Assembly (NCBI GenBank): GCA_963804955.1
Contig: CAWDSQ010000030.1
Coordinates: 32,001 to 96,000 of the forward strand
Origin: an uncultured delta proteobacterium
GTDB taxonomy: Bacteria; Desulfobacterota; WTBG01; CAIYCZ01; CAIRTM01
Direction: 5' to 3'
Length of the DNA: 64,000 bases
Under the pieces are notes generated by a model. It saw only the letters and a list, made by a program, of their open reading frames with translations. It was not told the DNA's origin and made no database searches. This document shows, in pieces, positions 30,501 through 44,480 of this stretch. The position numbers were made by a program, and so were the translations under genes. Positions within the stretch are counted from its first letter, which is position 1, and each line of letters begins with the position of its first letter.

Positions 30501-33189
30501 GCGGACCCTGCGCCACCAGGCTGCCGCCGGCATGGCCGCCTTCCGGGCCGAGGTCAAGCAGGTGATCTGCGCATTTTATTATATCCAGATTATGCTCAAC
30601 GACGATAATGGAATGGCCCTGACGCACAAGGTAGTCAAAGGCCTGCAGGAGTTTTGCAATATCGTCATAGTGCAGCCCTGTCGTGGGCTCGTCAAAAAGA
30701 AAGAGAGTTCGACCCTGGCTGCCCTGCCTGATAAATGATGCCAGTTTCAGCCGCTGCGACTCCCCGCCCGAGAGCGTATTGGCCGGCTGCCCGAGCCGCA
30801 GATACCCCAGGCCCACCATGTCGAGAATGCGCAGGGGGGAGGTGATTTTGGGCGTATCGGCGAAAAAAGCGCAGCCTTCGGCAACGGACATCTCCAGCAC
30901 ATCATGGATGTTTTTGCCCTGCCAGGTTACTTCGAGCACTTCAGGGCTGTAGCGCCTGCCGCGGCATGCCGGGCAGGTCACATACACATCCGCCAGAAAC
31001 TGCATCTCAACCATTTCATAGCCGTCGCCCTGGCACTGCTGGCACCGGCCTCCCTGGCTGTTGAAAGAAAATGTTGAAGCCGTATAGCCCCGCTCGCGCG
31101 CGGCATCGGTCTGGGCAAACAGGGCCCGTATGGCCTCAAAAGCCTTCATGTAGGTGACCGGGTTTGAGCGCGGGGTTCTGCCGATGGGCCCCTGATCCAT
31201 AAGAATCACGGTCTCGGGAGCGTTTTTCCCCTCAAAGAAGCAGAGGCCTGATTTTTTATCGCGCTGCGACAGGGTTTTGTACAGCACGTCCTCGAGAAGG
31301 GTTGATTTGCCTGAGCCCGAAACTCCGGTTATGCAGACAAGCAGGCCAAGGGGGATGGTGATATCGAGTGATTTTAGATTATGAGCGGCTGCGCCGCGAA
31401 CCTGCAGGCGGCAGTCGGATGAGGGCCTGCGCCGCAGCCGGGGAGGCCTTATGGCAAGAGCCCCTGACATATATTTTCCGGTAAGTGATGCCGTGCTTTT
31501 TAGAAGCCCGGCCGGCGTTCCCGTAAAAACGATACTGCCGCCCCGTTCCCCCGAGGCCGGCCCCATGTCGATGACCGTATCGCTATTGGAGATAATATCG
31601 TGATCATGCTCAACGATCATCAGCGTATTGCCCATGTCCCTCAGGCCCTTCAGGATTTCGATCAGCATGCGCGTGTCGCGCGGGTGGAGTCCAATGCTGG
31701 GCTCATCCAGCACATAGAGCGTATTGACAAGGCATGAACCCAGGGCCGTTGTGAGGCTGGCCCGCTCCACTTCGCCGCCCGAGAGGGTGCGCGACTGGCG
31801 GTCAAGGGTGAGATACCCCAGCCCCACGCGCTCAAGATAGGAGAGGCGCGAGGCTATTTCCTGCAGCAGCACCGTGACGGTCGTATCCTCACCGGGGCGG
31901 GCCTGGAGCGCGCGGAAATAGTGGAGACAGTCAGAGATGGGCATGCTGCAGATATCGGCAATGGAGGCGCCGCCGATTTTATACAGCAGGGTCTCGTTCT
32001 TGAAGCGCGTGCCGCCGCAGGCTGAGCACAGGGTGTAGGCGCGGTATTTTGAAAGCAGCACCCGTATGTGCATTTTATAGGTCCGCGTTTCAAGCCACTT
32101 GAAAAAGCCCATGATGCCGTAGAAATCGTCGCTGCCTGTGACAATGGTTGAGCGCTGCTCGTCGGTAAGCTCGCGGTACGGCAGGTCTGCGGGAATGCCC
32201 TGCCTGCGGCAGAAGCGCAAAAGATCATGATAGGCCTCGCGGTATGATGGCGTTGACCAGGGCTTGATCGCATCATCCTTGAGGGACAAAGACGTGTCGG
32301 GCACCACCGCATCAAGATCAACCTCGATTGTGCGGCCGAATCCCCTGCACAGGTCGCAGGCCCCCAGAGGGCTGTTGAAAGAAAAAAGGCCGGGGGTCGG
32401 TATGCGGTAGTGTATGTCGCAGTGGGGGCAGTGAAGGTCGGTGCTGAATTTCAGCGGTAGAGCCTCAGCCTCCGCAAGAAAGACAGAGGCCTGCCCCTTG
32501 CCGAATTTCAACGTGGTTTCAAGAGAATCGGCAAGGCGCTTTTTATTGCGCTGTGCAATCGTCACCCTGTCTGCAAGGATATTGACAGTTCCTTCTGCAT
32601 GATGCGCCAGCAGTTCAGCCGTTATTTCCTGCGCCGTACCGGCTTCAAAAATCCGGTAAAACCCCTGGGCCCGGAGCCCTGCCTCAACCTCCTGCAGAGG
32701 CACAACCGATGCCGGGGGAACCGTAAAGGGAAAGGCGATGGTGCAGCCCAGACCCTCATGGTCTGCCAGAAGCACCCGGCAGATCGACTCTGCTGAGTCT
32801 TTTTCAACAACCCGGCCGCAGCCCCGGCAGCACAGGCGCGCAAGCCTGGGAAAAAGCAGCTTCAAATAGTCGGTGATTTCGGTGAGCGTCCCCAGCGTCG
32901 AGCGGGAGGTTTTAATAGTGTTGGTCTGGTTGATGGCAATGGCCGGAAGAATGCCCTCGATCGAGTCGACGGCCGGCTTGTCCATGCGGTCCATGAACTG
33001 GCGGGCATAGGCTGAAAAGCTTTCGATATACCGGCGCTGGCCTTCGGCATAGACCGTGTCGAAGGCCAGGCTTGATTTGCCCGAGCCCGACACGCCCGTC
33101 ACGACCGTGATTTTCCCCAGCTCAATATCCAGATCGAGGTTTTTCAGATTGTTCTGGCATGCGCCGCGGATGCTTATTTTATCGCTCAT
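27577..33189 (-). CDS. uvrA: Excinuclease ABC subunit A, double-length (two UvrA units fused)
   Basis: 1870 aa; four Walker A motifs (GVSGSGKS x2, [16 protein letters not shown]), four LSGGE signatures, repeated FSFN zinc modules. Confidence 0.95.
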
Positions 33190-39638: not shown

Positions 39639-41519
39639 ATGGAAAGACTTCTACCAAAGATCAACAGCCCTGAGGACCTGCGCAGGCTGAGCCTCAAGGA
39701 GCTTCCCGGCCTGGCTACAGAAATACGCGAGCTCATTATCGATACCGTTTCAAAAACCGGCGGCCATCTGGCGCCAAGCCTTGGCGTTGTGGAGCTCACC
39801 ATCGCGCTGCATTATGTCTTCAATACGCCCCGCGACAAGATCGTTTGGGATGTCGGGCATCAGGCCTATGCCCACAAGATACTCACCGGCCGCCGCGACG
39901 CTTTTCCGTCGCTGCGGCAGATGGGGGGCCTGTGCGGATTCCCCAAGCGCGAAGAGAGCCCGTATGATGCCTTCAACGTGGGGCACAGCAGCACCTCCAT
40001 CTCGGCAGCCCTCGGGATGGCCGAGTCGTGCAGGCTCAAGGGCGAGGACTGCAAGGCCATAGCCGTCATCGGCGACGGCGCTCTGGCGGCAGGCATGGCC
40101 TTTGAAGCGCTCAACCATGCCGGCCATATCAAGCGCGATCTGATCGTTATCCTGAACGACAACGAAATGTCCATATCTCCCAATGTCGGAGCGCTTTCAT
40201 CATCGCTGTCGCGCATCATTTCGGGCCAGGCGTATAACCGGTTTCGCGATAAGGTTAATGCCATGCTTGAAAAGATCCCGGGTATCGGCGAGTCGGTGAC
40301 GCGCATTGCCCGCCAGTCGGAAGGGTTTTTCAAGAGTATTTTTGTGCCGGGCCAGATTTTTGAGGAGCTGGGCTTTGTCTATATCGGCCCGGTTCTCGGG
40401 CACCGCATCGATCTGCTTGTTGACGATTTGCGCAATATTAAAAATCTTAAGGGCCCGATACTGCTGCATGTGATTACGCGCAAAGGCAAGGGCTACAAGC
40501 CCGCCGAGGACGACCCGACGGCTTTTCACGGCATCGGCGCGTTTGACCGGGAAACCGGCAAGCCGCTGAAGGGCAGCGGGGCGCCGTCCTACACAAAAGT
40601 GTTTGGTGATGCGATAGCCCGCATAGCAGCAGACAATCCGCAGGTCGTGGCAATCACCGCGGGCATGACCAGCGGCACGGGCCTTGAGAAATTTCAGCAG
40701 CAGTTTCCCGACCGCTTTTACGATGTGGGCATAGCCGAGCAGCATGCCATCACGTTCGCCGCCGGCATGGCAGCCCAGGGGCTGCGGCCCGTGGCCGCCA
40801 TCTACTCCACCTTTCTGCAGCGATGCTACGATCAGGTGCTGCACGATGTCTGCATGCAGAAGCTGCCGGTCGTGTTCATGCTCGACCGGGCAGGGGTCGT
40901 AGGCGAAGACGGGCCCACACATCACGGCCTTTTTGATATCTCCTACCTGCGCTTGCTGCCGAACATGGTCTTCATGGCCCCAGCAGATGAGAACGAGCTG
41001 CAGCATATGCTCTATACCGCTTTGGGCCTTGACTGCCCCGTTGCCATACGCTATCCGCGCGGCGCCGGCGCAGGGGTGCCCCTGGACCCCGAGCTGCAGT
41101 GCTTGCCGCTCGGGAAGGCGCAGGTGCTCAAGGACGGCACCGATGCCGCGGTGTTTGCCATCGGCAGCACCGTCCACCCGGCTCTCGAAGCGGCAGGGAT
41201 GCTGCAGCAGGAGGGCATTTCCTGCGCCGTGGTGAATGCCCGCTTCATCAAGCCCCTTGATGTCGACATGCTGCAAACTTTTGCCAAATCCGTTAAGGTG
41301 CTCGTAACAGTCGAGGAGAACGCCCTGCAGGGCGGTTTCGGCTCGGCAGTGCTTGAGGCCCTCCAGGAGCAGGGCTGCGCGGCTCGCGTATGCCGCATCG
41401 GCATTCCCGACCGGTTTGTCGAGCAGGGCTCGCAAAAGCAGCTTCGTGCCAAATACAGCCTCGATGCCCAGGGTATTGCCGCTACGGTGAAAAGAACGCT
41501 TGCAGATGGCCGGCCATAA
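39639..41519 (+). CDS. dxs: 1-deoxy-D-xylulose-5-phosphate synthase
   Basis: [21 protein letters not shown]...[17 protein letters not shown]...DGPTH. Confidence 0.98.
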
Positions 41520-42262
41520 AAAAGAGCGCCTTGACAGCCTCGTTCTTGCCCGCGGCCTTGCCGCCGGGCTTGACAGGGCGCGCAGCCTCATCATGGCAGG
41601 CCTGGTGATTGTCGATGATCACCTGGCTGATAAACCCGGCCTCCTTATATCCCCTGATGCCTGTATCCGCCTTCGCGATGAATCATGCCCCTATGTGAGC
41701 CGGGGCGGACTTAAACTGGAAAAACCTCTTGATATCTTTCAGGTGCCTGTAGCGGGAAAGGTGTGCCTTGATGTGGGCGCCTCGACCGGAGGCTTTACCG
41801 ACTGCCTGCTGCAGCACGGCGCTGCCCGGGTGTATGCCGTTGACGTCGGCTATGGCCAGCTTGCCTGGCAGCTCCAGCAGGACAGCCGCGTGGTGCGGTT
41901 TGACCGCACCAATATAACAAAGCTGCAGCCCGCGGATATTGACCCTCCTGGCGATCTGGCCGTCATTGATGCATCGTTTACCTCCCTGCGGCATCTGCTT
42001 CAGCCCGTGCTCAGGCTGCTCGTGCCGGCAGGAGAACTGCTCTGTCTGGTGAAGCCGCAGTTTGAAGCCCGGCGCGGGGCGGCTGCGACAGGGAGGCATT
42101 GTGCGGGATGAAAAGCATTATCAGGAAGCGCTGCGCAGCGTCGCACTGGCCATGCGCAGCGCAGGGCTTTTTGTGAGCGGTATTGTTGAATCTCCCATAA
42201 GCGGAGCAAAGGGTAACCGGGAGTTTTTTATCTATGCACGCAAGCAGGGCATGAAAGCGTGA
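41506..42262 (+). CDS. tlyA: TlyA family rRNA methyltransferase (frameshift near 42075)
   Basis: S4 domain, [39 protein letters not shown]. Confidence 0.93.
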
Positions 42263-42318
42263 GGCTTTGTCAGAGCATGTAAGAACAATCAACTTAAACA
42301 CTGCGGGTGTTTTTGATT

Positions 42319-42392
42319 TGTCATGCTGAGCGTAGCGAAGATTCCATGCAGTGACAAAAAATTACGAGCCCCTTCACTTCGTTCAGGTCACA
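42319..42392. repeat. TGTCA-family REP-like palindrome (copy 1)
   Basis: TGTCATGCTGAGCGTAGCGAAG...CTTCACTTCGTTCAGGTCACA; related copy at 48735-48808. Confidence 0.7.
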
Positions 42393-42543
42393 ATTTAAAC
42401 TTTCCGTAGAGGCTCTCAGTAAAACATAGGAGAATGATTCTTAGATCGTAGATACTATGAAGGAAAGGATCATTTGACAGGCGTCACGTCTCGGATATGC
42501 TAAAAAAGTCACGTCAATAACTTTCAGCATAAAGGAGACAAAC

Positions 42544-43686
42544 ATGGCGAACAATCAAATGATCCAAACCGAGGCAAAGAATAGCACAGGTAAGCAGGTT
42601 TTGTACATATCCCTTGAACTGTCCAACAAGAAATGGAAACTGACGTTTGGGGACGGGCAACGCAGGAGGGAGCGAACAATAACATCAGCAGATCTTGAAG
42701 AGTTTAAGGAAGAGCTGGTCAAGGCCCGGAAGCATTTTAGACTGGATGAAGATTGCGCCATATACAGCTGTTATGAATCGGGACGAGACGGGTTTTGGAT
42801 ACATCGGTATTTGGAGAGCATAGGGATAAAGAATATCGTGGTGGACTCGGCCAGTATCGAAGTGAACCGGCGGCATCGGCGGGCCAAGACGGACCGGGTA
42901 GATGGGTTAAAGTTGTTAACCATGCTGATACGGCACTTGGGAGGAGAGCAGAAAGTCTGGAGTGTGGTACGGGTTCCGACACAGGAACAGGAAGATGAAC
43001 GGCGACTCAACCGAGAGAGGGATCGGCTGTTAAAGGAACGGGGAGCACATGTAAGCCGGATAAAGTCGCTACTGATATTGTATGGGATACATGCAAAGGT
43101 AGGCAGTAAATTTCTGAAGCTGCTTGAGGAAGTGCGAGCCTGGGATGGCAGCAAACTGCCAGAGTATATCGTGCAGGAGATGAAGCGGGAGTATGAACGG
43201 ATAGGGGTGCTGGACCTGCAGTTGAAGCAGATCAATGAAGAGAAGAAGCGGCAGCTTGCGGCAAGTCCTGAACAAATGCGCAAGGTAAGCAAGCTTGCCC
43301 GGATACGGGCAATTGGGCCGATCAGTTCATGGGATTTGATCTATGAGTTTTTTGGCTGGCGGGAATTCAAGAATGTGAAGCAGGTGGGAGGTGCAGCAGG
43401 TCTTGCGCCAATGCCCTACAGCAGCGGGGATATGCAGATTGAGCAAGGGATAAGCAAAGCGGGCAATCGGCGGATCCGAGCTTTGCTGATAGAGTTAGCC
43501 TGGGGATGGCTGAGATGGCAGCCTGGCAGTAAGCTAAGCACGTGGTTTCATGAGCGCTTTGGAGGGGGCAACAAACGAATGAGGCGAATAGGGATCGTGG
43601 CGCTGGCCAGAAAACTGCTCATAGCGCTGTGGAAGTATGTTGATCACGACATCGTGCCGGAAGGCGCGATACTAAAGATGGCATAA
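42544..43686 (+). CDS. IS110 family transposase/recombinase
   Basis: RuvC-like N-terminus SLELS / CYESG / KTDRVD; C-terminal Tnp domain GLAPMPYSSG, GISKAGN, IVALARKL. Confidence 0.95.
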   Translation: MANNQMIQTEAKNSTGKQVLYISLELSNKKWKLTFGDGQRRRERTITSADLEEFKEELVKARKHFRLDEDCAIYSCYESGRDGFWIHRYLESIGIKNIVVDSASIEVNRRHRRAKTDRVDGLKLLTMLIRHLGGEQKVWSVVRVPTQEQEDERRLNRERDRLLKERGAHVSRIKSLLILYGIHAKVGSKFLKLLEEVRAWDGSKLPEYIVQEMKREYERIGVLDLQLKQINEEKKRQLAASPEQMRKVSKLARIRAIGPISSWDLIYEFFGWREFKNVKQVGGAAGLAPMPYSSGDMQIEQGISKAGNRRIRALLIELAWGWLRWQPGSKLSTWFHERFGGGNKRMRRIGIVALARKLLIALWKYVDHDIVPEGAILKMA

Positions 43687-43720
43687 AGGACATACAACAG
43701 GAGGAAAAGGATTTGATAGG

Positions 43721-43923
43721 CATTCCAGTTGGTGAAGCCCTTCGTACCCGCCCTGGGTCTAAAAGCACCGTCTTTGTAGATTGAAGGCTTCTTAAACTGG
43801 TTGGACTGACGCCAATTGGCGCACGCAGTATGTGGATGCACGGTTATAATACCGGCACGGATAGAAGGTGGTTCCGGGCAAGGTTCCCGGAAAACGACAA
43901 GCCCAACCGGCCAAAACGGAATG
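43721..43923 (+). ncRNA. Bridge RNA (seekRNA) of the IS110 element
   Basis: Closed by CATTCC/GGAATG; target loop with ACCCGCCCT (43746-43754) and GTAG (43776-43779); donor loop with GCAGTATGT (43825-43833) and ATAGAAG (43861-43867); these match the reconstructed target and donor. Confidence 0.85.
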
Positions 43924-43994
43924 AGTATCAAAAGATAAAGAAAGAAAAAAACAAAAAAAATTAACCCGAGGCTTGACAACGGTCCTCATAGAAG

Positions 43995-44012
43995 GGCGGG
44001 TGCCAACCCGCC
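43995..44012 (+). repeat. Hairpin half of the GTAG-REP split by the IS110 insertion
   Basis: GGCGGG-TGCCAA-CCCGCC; joined to the left flank it reads GTAG-GGCGGG-TGCCAA-CCCGCC. Confidence 0.8.
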
Positions 44013-44093
44013 GCAAGATTTTTTAAATTGATTCAACAGGGCATTGATTTTTTCATCGTGATGGTCTCCTGCACACACTGGTTTGGTTATCCT

Positions 44094-44480
44094 TCAGTCA
44101 TACATGACGGTAATCTCGCCTTCGTCAATTTGCTCCGAACGGCATTTAGGACAACGAGGGGGAGCGTCGAGGCAATACCTCCCGCCACACCTGCATGTTC
44201 CAGCAATAAATTCGATTCCTTTGTGATATTCATCTTCGGATATAGGCTCAACTTTTGTAGTCTCTCGTATAGCCTTATCATGTTCCGCACTTGCAACACA
44301 ATACGGTCCCGGCAGTCCTTTTAAGTAGCGCAAATGCAACTCTCCAAGTTCATCAAAACCTATAGACTTCGTCTTTCCACAATTCTCACAGCGAACGAGG
44401 TGAAAGTAAAACCCCCCACCGTGGTCAACAGTGAAAGTGTTACCGCATTTGCGGCATTTGGCTTTAACTTGATGTCCCAT
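44094..44480 (-). CDS. Hypothetical zinc-ribbon protein
   Basis: CRKC, CENC, CRC and CPKC motifs; GGAGGAGG RBS. Confidence 0.8.
   Translation of the reverse strand: MGHQVKAKCRKCGNTFTVDHGGGFYFHLVRCENCGKTKSIGFDELGELHLRYLKGLPGPYCVASAEHDKAIRETTKVEPISEDEYHKGIEFIAGTCRCGGRYCLDAPPRCPKCRSEQIDEGEITVMYD

Follow-up and report, generated by a model that had tools for sequence, protein, structure and literature searches.

An IS110-family element of the IS1111 type with a probable downstream bridge/seek RNA in an uncultured delta proteobacterium

The closest described relatives of the element considered here are insertion sequences of the IS110 family that carry a bridge RNA or seekRNA; the published accounts are drawn on in part. 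In IS621 (Durrant et al. 2024, PMC11208160; structures 8WT6/8WT9), the RNA lies upstream, in the left end of the element. It has two internal loops, each of which reads both strands around a CT core, one loop at the target and the other at the joined ends. Bridge RNAs are predicted in the right end of 93% of the IS1111 elements in ISfinder (PMC11208160), and they have since been mined in millions of loci (2026 review, PMC13604230). The sequence analyzed here is a stretch of 64,000 nt (the window), positions 32,001 to 96,000 of contig CAWDSQ010000030.1 from an uncultured delta proteobacterium. Positions 42452–43992 of the window very probably (probability roughly 0.87) represent an intact IS110-family element of the IS1111 type with a downstream bridge/seek RNA.

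The described IS1111-type elements with a seekRNA are ISEc11, ISPa11, ISKpn4 and ISPst6 (Siddiquee et al. 2024, PMC11187229). Both in these and in the window element a long non-coding region is found downstream of the transposase gene (tnp). According to the portions of that account used here, other features in common are subterminal inverted repeats (7–17 bp within the group), a GL-P----SG motif in the protein and targets that often are palindromic repeats. The order of the guides is also the same: the one that can pair with the top strand precedes (5') the one that can pair with the bottom strand, with an overlap at the insertion point (43746–54 and 43776–79 in the window element). The window recombinase differs in length, with 380 amino acids (aa) compared to 330–350 aa in the compact IS1111 group. 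It is also distant from the plasmid-borne IS4321-type and ISEc45-type proteins, with 25–29% identity over only part of its length (36–77% of the query). The element is assigned to the IS1111 type by features (a predicted downstream RNA, guide order, subterminal repeats and the GL-P----SG motif) rather than by descent. Compared to IS621, the window element has its RNA on the other side of tnp, downstream, and a geometry that is a mirror image with respect to tnp, i.e., the CT core is on the strand opposite tnp. The element and its junctions are as follows.

42452–43992, plus strand: body of the insertion sequence, 1541 bp (~1.5 kb) between two copies of the core
42448–42449, plus strand: left target half, GT, retained in all four copies; the flanks diverge upstream of GT
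42450–42451, plus strand: left copy of the core dinucleotide, AG (CT on the minus strand), present at both junctions of all four copies and at every homologue junction found (24 right, 21 left)
43993–43994, plus strand: right copy of the core dinucleotide, AG, from the four-copy comparison
43995–44012, plus strand: right target half, hairpin GGCGGGU-GCCA-ACCCGCC, common to all four insertion sites and followed by a T-run (44021–26)
42455–42464, plus strand: left subterminal inverted repeat, CTATGAAGGA (CTATGA(A)GGA), which pairs with 43983–43991 with one extra base; the motif is conserved in the left ends of homologues
43983–43991, plus strand: right subterminal inverted repeat, TCCTCATAG, read directly from the sequence
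42544–43686, plus strand: tnp, encoding a 380-aa IS110-family recombinase with conserved E25, E78, D117, D120 and S294-G295

The host genome (4.26 Mb in 36 contigs) has four full copies of the element, which are recent (about 98–99% identical), and a 310-bp fragment. An alignment of the four copies with their flanks shows a common block from GTAG-ATACTATG... (42448) to ...CATAGAAG-GGCGGGTGC(C/T)AACCCGCC-G (44013), and the sequences outside this block are unrelated. The four-copy comparison places the left junction at ..GT/AG/ATACTATG and the right junction at ..CATAGA/AG/GGCGGGTGCCAACCCGCC, where slashes mark the edges of the core. Every copy has GT-AG on its left and AG plus the hairpin GG(G/A)CGGGTGC(C/T)AACCCGCC on its right. 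The GT-AG and the AG with its 18-nt hairpin, kept in all copies, represent the two halves of a single target. An empty target site with a single AG, cGTAG/GGCGGGTGCTAACCCGCC followed by ATTTTT, is present at C24:162359. The two target halves together with this empty site define the element proper as 42452–43992, with one core AG on each side. Insertion is site-specific, with the core dinucleotide shared at both junctions and no longer duplication in the four copies and the empty site. The non-coding ends are 92 nt on the left (42452–42543) and 306 nt on the right (43687–43992). The subterminal repeats are imperfect, with nine pairs and one extra base, and are inset 3 and 1 nt from the ends.

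All four copies are in the predicted site, with GT-AG on one side and AG-GGCGGGT on the other, next to the 5' foot of a terminator-like hairpin. The hairpin varies slightly among the four sites: one site has GGACGGGT, and the loop is either GCCA or GCTA. A search of the host genome for the hairpin motif gave eight matches. A terminator scan did not call the target hairpin because 8 nt separate its stem from the T-run. The same 18-nt hairpin adjoins every one of the four insertions, and the guide reads only seven of its bases. In this the element resembles ISPpu10, whose insertions lie beside a GC-rich target stem-loop (the 'sequence-structure dual-match' of bioRxiv 10.64898/2026.03.19.712850, cited from part of its text). 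Unlike the window element, ISPpu10, a member of the IS110 group, carries its RNA upstream. A role of the target hairpin in insertion here would recall the stem-loop requirement reported for ISPpu10.

Remnants are also found in the genome. The 310-bp fragment (C7:252697–253003) is from the left part of the element, has 93% identity and lacks the remainder. On contig C24 a 25-nt solo left junction (GTAG and the first 21 bases) is located 11 nt upstream of the full copy. This C24 copy sits in a module of two inverted target hairpins, and a second, empty module is ~2.7 kb away at C24:165123–165195.

The target-binding part of the predicted RNA has the following features.

43734–43791, plus strand: putative target-binding domain, with basal stem P2 (43734–43 with 43783–91), an internal loop and distal hairpin P3 (43756–58 with 43767–69), from partner-swap tests
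43746–43754, plus strand: candidate 5' target guide, ACCCGCCCU (ACCCGCCCT as DNA), complementary in 9/9 positions to the plus strand of the core and right flank (43993–44001)
43776–43779, plus strand: candidate 3' target guide, GUAG, identical to the left flank and core (42448–51) and predicted to pair with the minus strand; 4/4 in all four copies

ACCCGCCCT and 43993–44001 are exact reverse complements, and an inverted-repeat tool extends the complementarity to 14 nt at 86%. It occurs twice in the 64-kb window, solely as guide and target (the shuffle mean is 0.36, and 7 of 100 shuffles reach 2). GTAG by itself is too short to be informative. Because GTAG and ATAGAAG are short and the fold of the region is unremarkable, the case rests on comparison with homologues.

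A homologue search with one genome per species gave 34 loci that encode relatives with 39–58% identity over full-length matches. The hosts are mostly metagenome-assembled genomes (MAGs) of Desulfobacterota-like, Acidobacteriota, Myxococcota, Chloroflexota and other lineages. The downstream regions of these loci align with that of the window and the same blocks are conserved. The comparison set consists of 24 homologous loci and the window, in 13 clades; a recognizable second loop was needed and identical duplicates were collapsed. Loci L021 (RNA region disrupted), L030 (insertion in the second loop), L036 (degenerate), and L047 and L050 (partial genes) were excluded. Loop strings were taken from fixed alignment columns with a one-base slip allowed, and the conserved end motifs served to locate the junctions.

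The 5' target guide matches its own core and right flank with a mean of 7.12/9 (n = 24, with 8 loci at 9/9), a set that includes L028, scored 0 as its contig stops at the junction. Foreign pairs from other clades have a mean of 3.67 (n = 541). For the 3' target guide, the mean match to its own left flank and core is 5.90/7 (n = 21, with 10 loci at 7/7), compared to 3.62 for foreign pairs (n = 471). When guides were permuted against flanks, none of 20,000 permutations reached the observed sums of 121/135 (15 representatives) and 84/98 (14 representatives). The representatives were picked after the per-locus scores had been seen, and weaker members of two clades were omitted; the all-locus means include them. 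Examples of matched guides and flanks are GCCCACCCT with AG/GGTGGGC (L024, L032, L033), ATTATCGCT with AG/CGATAAT (L027) and AGCCGTCCT with AG/GACGGCT (L034). L025 (ATTACGGCT) and L049 (GTTACTGCT) are from one MAG. Their guides differ in three bases, their flanks (CCGTAAT and CAGTAAC) differ correspondingly, and both pairs match in 9/9 positions; the tnp of L049 is broken by frameshifts or stops. Weaker 5' matches are present in L043 (4/9), L035 and L042 (5/9) and L029 (6/9), and in two clades a G replaces U as the last core base of the guide. The match of the target loop is not chance: the guides, as read from sequence, co-vary with the flanks in 24 homologous elements.

This covariation test had been proposed in the original prediction, made from the letters of the window without database searches, and it came out strongly positive for either target guide. 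The four strings which that prediction quoted are found at 43746–43754 (ACCCGCCCT), 43776–43779 (GTAG), 43825–43833 (GCAGTATGT) and 43861–43867 (ATAGAAG), and they match as it said. Its claim of target guides in loop 1, 9/9 and 4/4 in the window, is borne out by the homologues.

Several further observations concern the homologous loci. Their targets are not all hairpins. L044 and L048 have a perfectly palindromic target, CCGGGTCT-TC-AGACCCGG, whose second half contains the core; here the 3' guide agrees with the left flank in 7/7 positions. The clade of L017, L018–L020, L024 and L046 has its right terminus ~640–720 nt past the tnp stop compared to ~300 nt, with ~350 nt extra between RNA and right end. 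L021 has unrelated sequence in place of the RNA region.

Secondary structure was compared across the 13 clades by an alignment-tolerant partner-swap test on duplex energies: a clade supports a helix if the 5' strand prefers the 3' strand from the same clade to the median of the foreign 3' strands. The predicted RNA begins about 30 nt past the tnp stop codon and contains the helices listed.

43712–43932, plus strand: putative bridge/seek RNA gene, roughly 220 nt, with its extent taken from the closing helix (inverted repeat 43712–26 / 43918–32)
P2, basal stem of the target loop, which includes GAAGCC/GGCTTC: 13/13 clades, p = 0.0001
P0, closing helix, 43721–26 / 43918–23 and 43729–33 / 43910–14: 12/13 clades, p = 0.0006
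Long-range helix, 43797–804 / 43903–10: 12/13 clades, p = 0.0004
43797–43910, plus strand: domain of the long-range helix, which encloses hairpin P4, the donor loop and hairpin P7
P7 hairpin, 43872–78 / 43886–92: 11/13 clades, p = 0.0017
P4 hairpin, 43810–13 / 43818–21: 8/13 clades, p = 0.027
P3, distal hairpin of the target loop, 43756–58 / 43767–69: 8/13 clades, p = 0.036
43837–43857, plus strand: P6, distal stem of the donor loop (UGC, CGGU / ACCG, GCA): 13/13 clades, p = 0.0001; 6 of 8 alifold pairs have double changes

The supported helices differ in sequence throughout, clade by clade. RNAalifold on a MAFFT alignment gave only 16 pairs, 10 of them with double (compensatory) changes; the number of pairs is small because helix registers drift in this alignment. 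A brute-force scan of column pairs was too noisy for use and was replaced by the partner-swap test. The comparison indicates that a predicted RNA secondary structure is kept by compensatory changes, with P0, P2, the long-range helix, P6 and P7 maintained in 11–13 of the 13 clades.

The original prediction had drawn two simple stem-loop domains closed by four stems. All four stems are present, at 43725–30/43795–800, 43734–39/43786–91, 43822–24/43868–70 and 43837–44/43851–57. Two of them, GAAGCC/GGCTTC and TGC-CGGT/ACCG-GCA (TGC 43837–39 and CGGT 43841–44 with ACCG 43851–54 and GCA 43855–57), have full comparative support, with 13/13 clades each. The other two were not adopted: CCAGTT/AACTGG has no clear comparative support (8/13 clades, p = 0.07), and CAC/GTG is not significant (6/13 clades). 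The overall arrangement also is a different one. The partner-swap tests point to a terminal closing helix and to a donor loop nested in the long-range helix in place of two simple domains, and the outer P0 pairs coincide with the limits first proposed, 43721–43923. CCAGTT/AACTGG shares bases with P0 and the long-range helix and competes against them. As a speculation, it could form in a short RNA from which the 3' partners are missing, in line with the two size classes (short and long) of seekRNA reported for IS1111 elements (PMC11187229, cited in part).

The number of variable sites among the four copies is 35 in the 1143-nt open reading frame (ORF), three in the left end, one in the 306-nt right end and none in 43712–43932. 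The ORF differs in variability from the right end (Fisher p = 0.003) and from the RNA region (p = 0.004). Metatranscriptome contigs from two runs cover 43728–43878 with one difference and 43833–43929 with four differences. A third contig (X1), from a lake-water metatranscriptome, runs from 43966 in the right end through the whole hairpin to 44013 and then has a different flank, so the same junction of element and hairpin is present in another genomic context. In the RNA runs tnp has no cover, and in run X3 Illumina-adapter letters precede 43833; neither observation was counted as evidence.

The protein encoded by tnp scores 170.7 bits against NF033542, 'IS110 family RNA-guided transposase' (NCBIfam, cut-off 140, residues 22–367), and 60.7 bits against PF02371 (cut-off 21.3). 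An AlphaFold model made with 25 homologues has a predicted local distance difference test score (pLDDT) of 82.1. Its top Foldseek matches are the synaptic complexes of ISCro4 (9T56) and IS621 (8WT6/8WT9), with E values of 9e-13 to 1.7e-10 over the whole length and template modeling (TM) scores of 0.50–0.54 by query and 0.58–0.64 by target. ISCro4 is the best match among solved structures both by fold (E 9e-13) and by sequence (E 0.0018, C-terminal domain), with an identity of only 18–19%. IS621 shares the fold (E about 5e-12, TM 0.54/0.63) with about 18% identity in the structural alignment, and a phmmer search against the PDB gives no IS621 match. An alignment of 25 protein sequences, which excludes L035 and L049 because their translations contain stop codons, has no variation at E78, D120 and S294, and D117 and G295 show conservation of 90% or more. 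Within the C-terminal serine motif (G-L-A-P-M-P-Y-S-S-G in the window), no sequence departs from G286, P291 or S294, and L287 and G295 each occur in 90% or more of the sequences. By family profile and predicted fold, the protein is an IS110-family recombinase with a probable RuvC-like domain and a catalytic serine. The prediction of an IS110/IS1111 bridge-RNA system is supported by this profile score, by the fold of ISCro4 and IS621, by the downstream region and guide order, and by the covariation of guides and flanks.

The protein has a very large number of relatives, at least 8000, as each of the 8000 candidates scored had E<=1e-20. The best are 84–87% identical and are from metagenomes and a Geobacteraceae MAG; the best named relative is the 'IS110 family transposase' of this MAG, with 84% identity. 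The 380-aa clade is abundant in sediment and soil metagenomes.

The second loop of the predicted RNA has two candidate guides for the ends of the element.

43861–43867, plus strand: candidate 3' donor guide, AUAGAAG, identical in 7/7 positions to the right end and core (43988–94)
43826–43833, plus strand: candidate 5' donor guide, CAGUAUGU, which agrees imperfectly, in 6/8 positions, with the core and left end read as reverse complement

In 24/24 loci the 3' donor string is identical to the element's final five bases followed by the core; six loci, in two clades, have G at the fifth base in both places. By itself ATAGAAG is not rare in the 64-kb window (9 matches compared to a shuffle mean of 4.69). 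The original prediction had claimed guides for both ends. Its ATAGAAG holds, both as an exact match in the window and as a right-end identity throughout the homologues, and its GCAGTATGT is, as claimed, 6/9 to the reverse complement of AG+ATACTAT, a weak match. The donor reading of loop 2 is likely, and less secure than the target reading of loop 1.

A mechanism can be proposed by analogy with IS621, ISEc11 and their relatives, from which it is also inferred that the region acts as an RNA bound to the recombinase. The element would excise as a circle, and the RNA would bridge the circle junction and the target. The target loop would read both strands around the 2-nt core (AG on the plus strand, CT on the minus strand), with ACCCGCCCU paired to the plus strand of AG+GGCGGGT and GUAG paired to the minus strand of GT+AG. 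The donor loop would read the joined ends of the excised circle, with AUAGAAG paired to the minus strand of the right end and core, and CAGUAUGU paired imperfectly to the plus strand of the core and left end. In both loops, taking tnp as reference, the 5' side would then pair rightward of the core, with the plus strand, and the 3' side leftward of it, with the minus strand. The recombinase would swap strands at the core and so place the element between GT-AG and AG-GGCGGGT.

A promoter created at the circle junction may likewise be proposed from IS621, ISEc11 and relatives. The promoter-like sites are listed.

43973–43978, plus strand: TTGACA, a -35-like hexamer, 14 nt from the right terminus
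42453–42458, plus strand: TACTAT, a -10-like hexamer, which would be 17 nt after the right-end TTGACA if the ends were joined in a circle
42474–42501, plus strand: TTGACA-16-TATGCT, a promoter-like site in the left end upstream of tnp, weak when taken alone (one site compared to 1.7 expected in shuffles)

A TTGACN-like hexamer is present near the right terminus in 24/24 loci, at 16–17 nt in most, 14 nt here and 11 nt in one clade. The TTGACA/TACTAT pair at joined ends would fit the junction promoters described for the IS110 family in the review cited above (PMC13604230, drawn on in part).

A number of observations weigh against the assignment of the locus as an intact bridge/seek RNA element. 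The 11-mer GTAGGGCGGGT has three free sites in 4.26 Mb compared to about two expected by chance, so that the target site is not an abundant repeat. The left target guide of the window element matches no further than GTAG, and the other bases of the loop mismatch all four left flanks. In the donor loop, the 3' guide co-varies at one position only, and the 5' string is a weak match across loci (4.90/8 own and 3.89 foreign). Single-sequence folds are no more stable than those of shuffled sequences (z of -0.99 and -1.29), and an Rfam scan of 42200–44100 at E up to 10 found no family match, only a meaningless lncRNA (long non-coding RNA) match. The RNA-library contigs show that near-identical elements are present elsewhere and in RNA libraries; they cannot prove transcription, strand or ends. 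The distance between hexamer and right terminus ranges from 11 to 17 nt, and the geometry of a junction promoter is therefore not conserved. PF01548, the DEDD domain, scores 24.6 bits and is under its cut-off of 29; judged by fold, a DEDD domain may be present. The first acidic residue (position 25) is Glu instead of Asp in 23 of the 25 aligned proteins and Asp in the other two. A sister copy at C30:23783–25357 (~50 kb upstream, outside the window) has a 1-bp insertion at the equivalent of 42863, which is expected to frameshift its tnp.

Beyond the assignment to the IS1111 type, it is conceivable, though doubtful, that the 380-aa clade forms a distinct, uncharacterised branch of bridge recombinases. 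Its marks would be a first catalytic residue that is Glu and not Asp, a closed and nested RNA, and, in this host, a target in the arm of a hairpin. The closed RNA might then switch to CCAGTT/AACTGG upon processing to a short form with the target loop only. DNA structure might gate insertion at the 5' arm of the hairpin, and the element would gain a ready-made terminator.

The main rival to a bispecific bridge RNA is a seekRNA in the narrow sense, in which loop 1 holds the target guides and loop 2 holds no donor guide. The identity of loop 2 to the right end would then be a conserved DNA or RNA motif, e.g., a site bound by the recombinase or a copy of the end inside the element, and the ends would be recognized through the subterminal repeats and the flanking target halves. 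The poor 5' donor string fits this explanation, as does the 3' string, which is nearly invariant with a single position able to co-vary, and so does the basal stem CAC/GTG of loop 2, which has no comparative support. In the parts of Siddiquee et al. (PMC11187229) used here, the abundant short IS1111 seekRNA (82–96 nt) carries the target matches, and the target halves that flank the donor matter. Against it, the lone variable position co-varies without exception (G/G in 6/6 loci and A/A in 18/18), and the central bases of the 5' donor string track the left end in three clades (AGTAT/ATACT, TTGT/ACAA and TGGT/ACCA). Loops 1 and 2 also share their geometry, and in loop 2 the distal stem above the internal loop (P6) co-varies; the solved complexes of ISCro4 and IS621, as far as described in the sources used, include a donor-binding loop. 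A loop 2 without donor guide is held to be improbable, and a bridge RNA that reads both target and donor is the preferred interpretation.

It is similarly improbable that the element is a genuine bridge-RNA element whose lineage is immobile in this host, i.e., a recently decayed family that would provide no working reprogrammable tool. The frameshifting insertion in one copy, the 93% fragment and the solo left end beside the C24 copy, and the 35 ORF differences among copies would be expected of such a lineage. No circle-junction joint was seen in contigs of sequencing runs, a point which is weak because only contigs were covered. On the other side, the tnp ORF of the window copy is complete and retains every conserved residue, both ends of this copy are present, and the RNA region is identical in the four copies.

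Matches that are merely DNA-level or historical, in which the right end is a 3' untranslated region, a terminator or a protein-binding region and the strings come from a captured or duplicated piece of target, would suit the unremarkable fold energy, the absence of an Rfam match and a discrete RNA that is proposed from sequence, but are most implausible, as a captured copy would neither follow the differing insertion sites of 13 clades at both flanks nor occupy loops of helices maintained by compensatory changes, and RNA dependence of relatives has been shown experimentally (PMC11208160 and PMC11187229, in the parts cited).

The surroundings of the element have additional features. A dispersed repeat of ~110 nt (window 42311–42425) is directly upstream; the host genome has nine more partial matches to it with 70–77% identity (L007–L012, L014, L015 and others), and it gives no Rfam match at E up to 10. 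An ORF of 128 aa that is rich in CxxC pairs (window 44094–44480, minus strand) lies to the right and runs toward the target hairpin. This ORF and the upstream tlyA-like gene (41500–42262) may share the hairpin and T-run as a terminator.

The system described here is genuine and apparently intact, an IS1111-type bridge/seek RNA system of an already known class. This class, with its bridge and seek RNAs, was described in 2024, and the locus opens no new question; the element may already be named. It adds a natural RNA-guided recombinase whose cognate parts are readable from the sequence: a 380-aa protein, a ~220-nt RNA, an 11-bp target and the donor ends. L025 and L049, found together in one MAG, represent natural retargeting, where three guide changes are mirrored by three flank changes. 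For annotation, the ends and target of such elements are predictable from the RNA loops alone.

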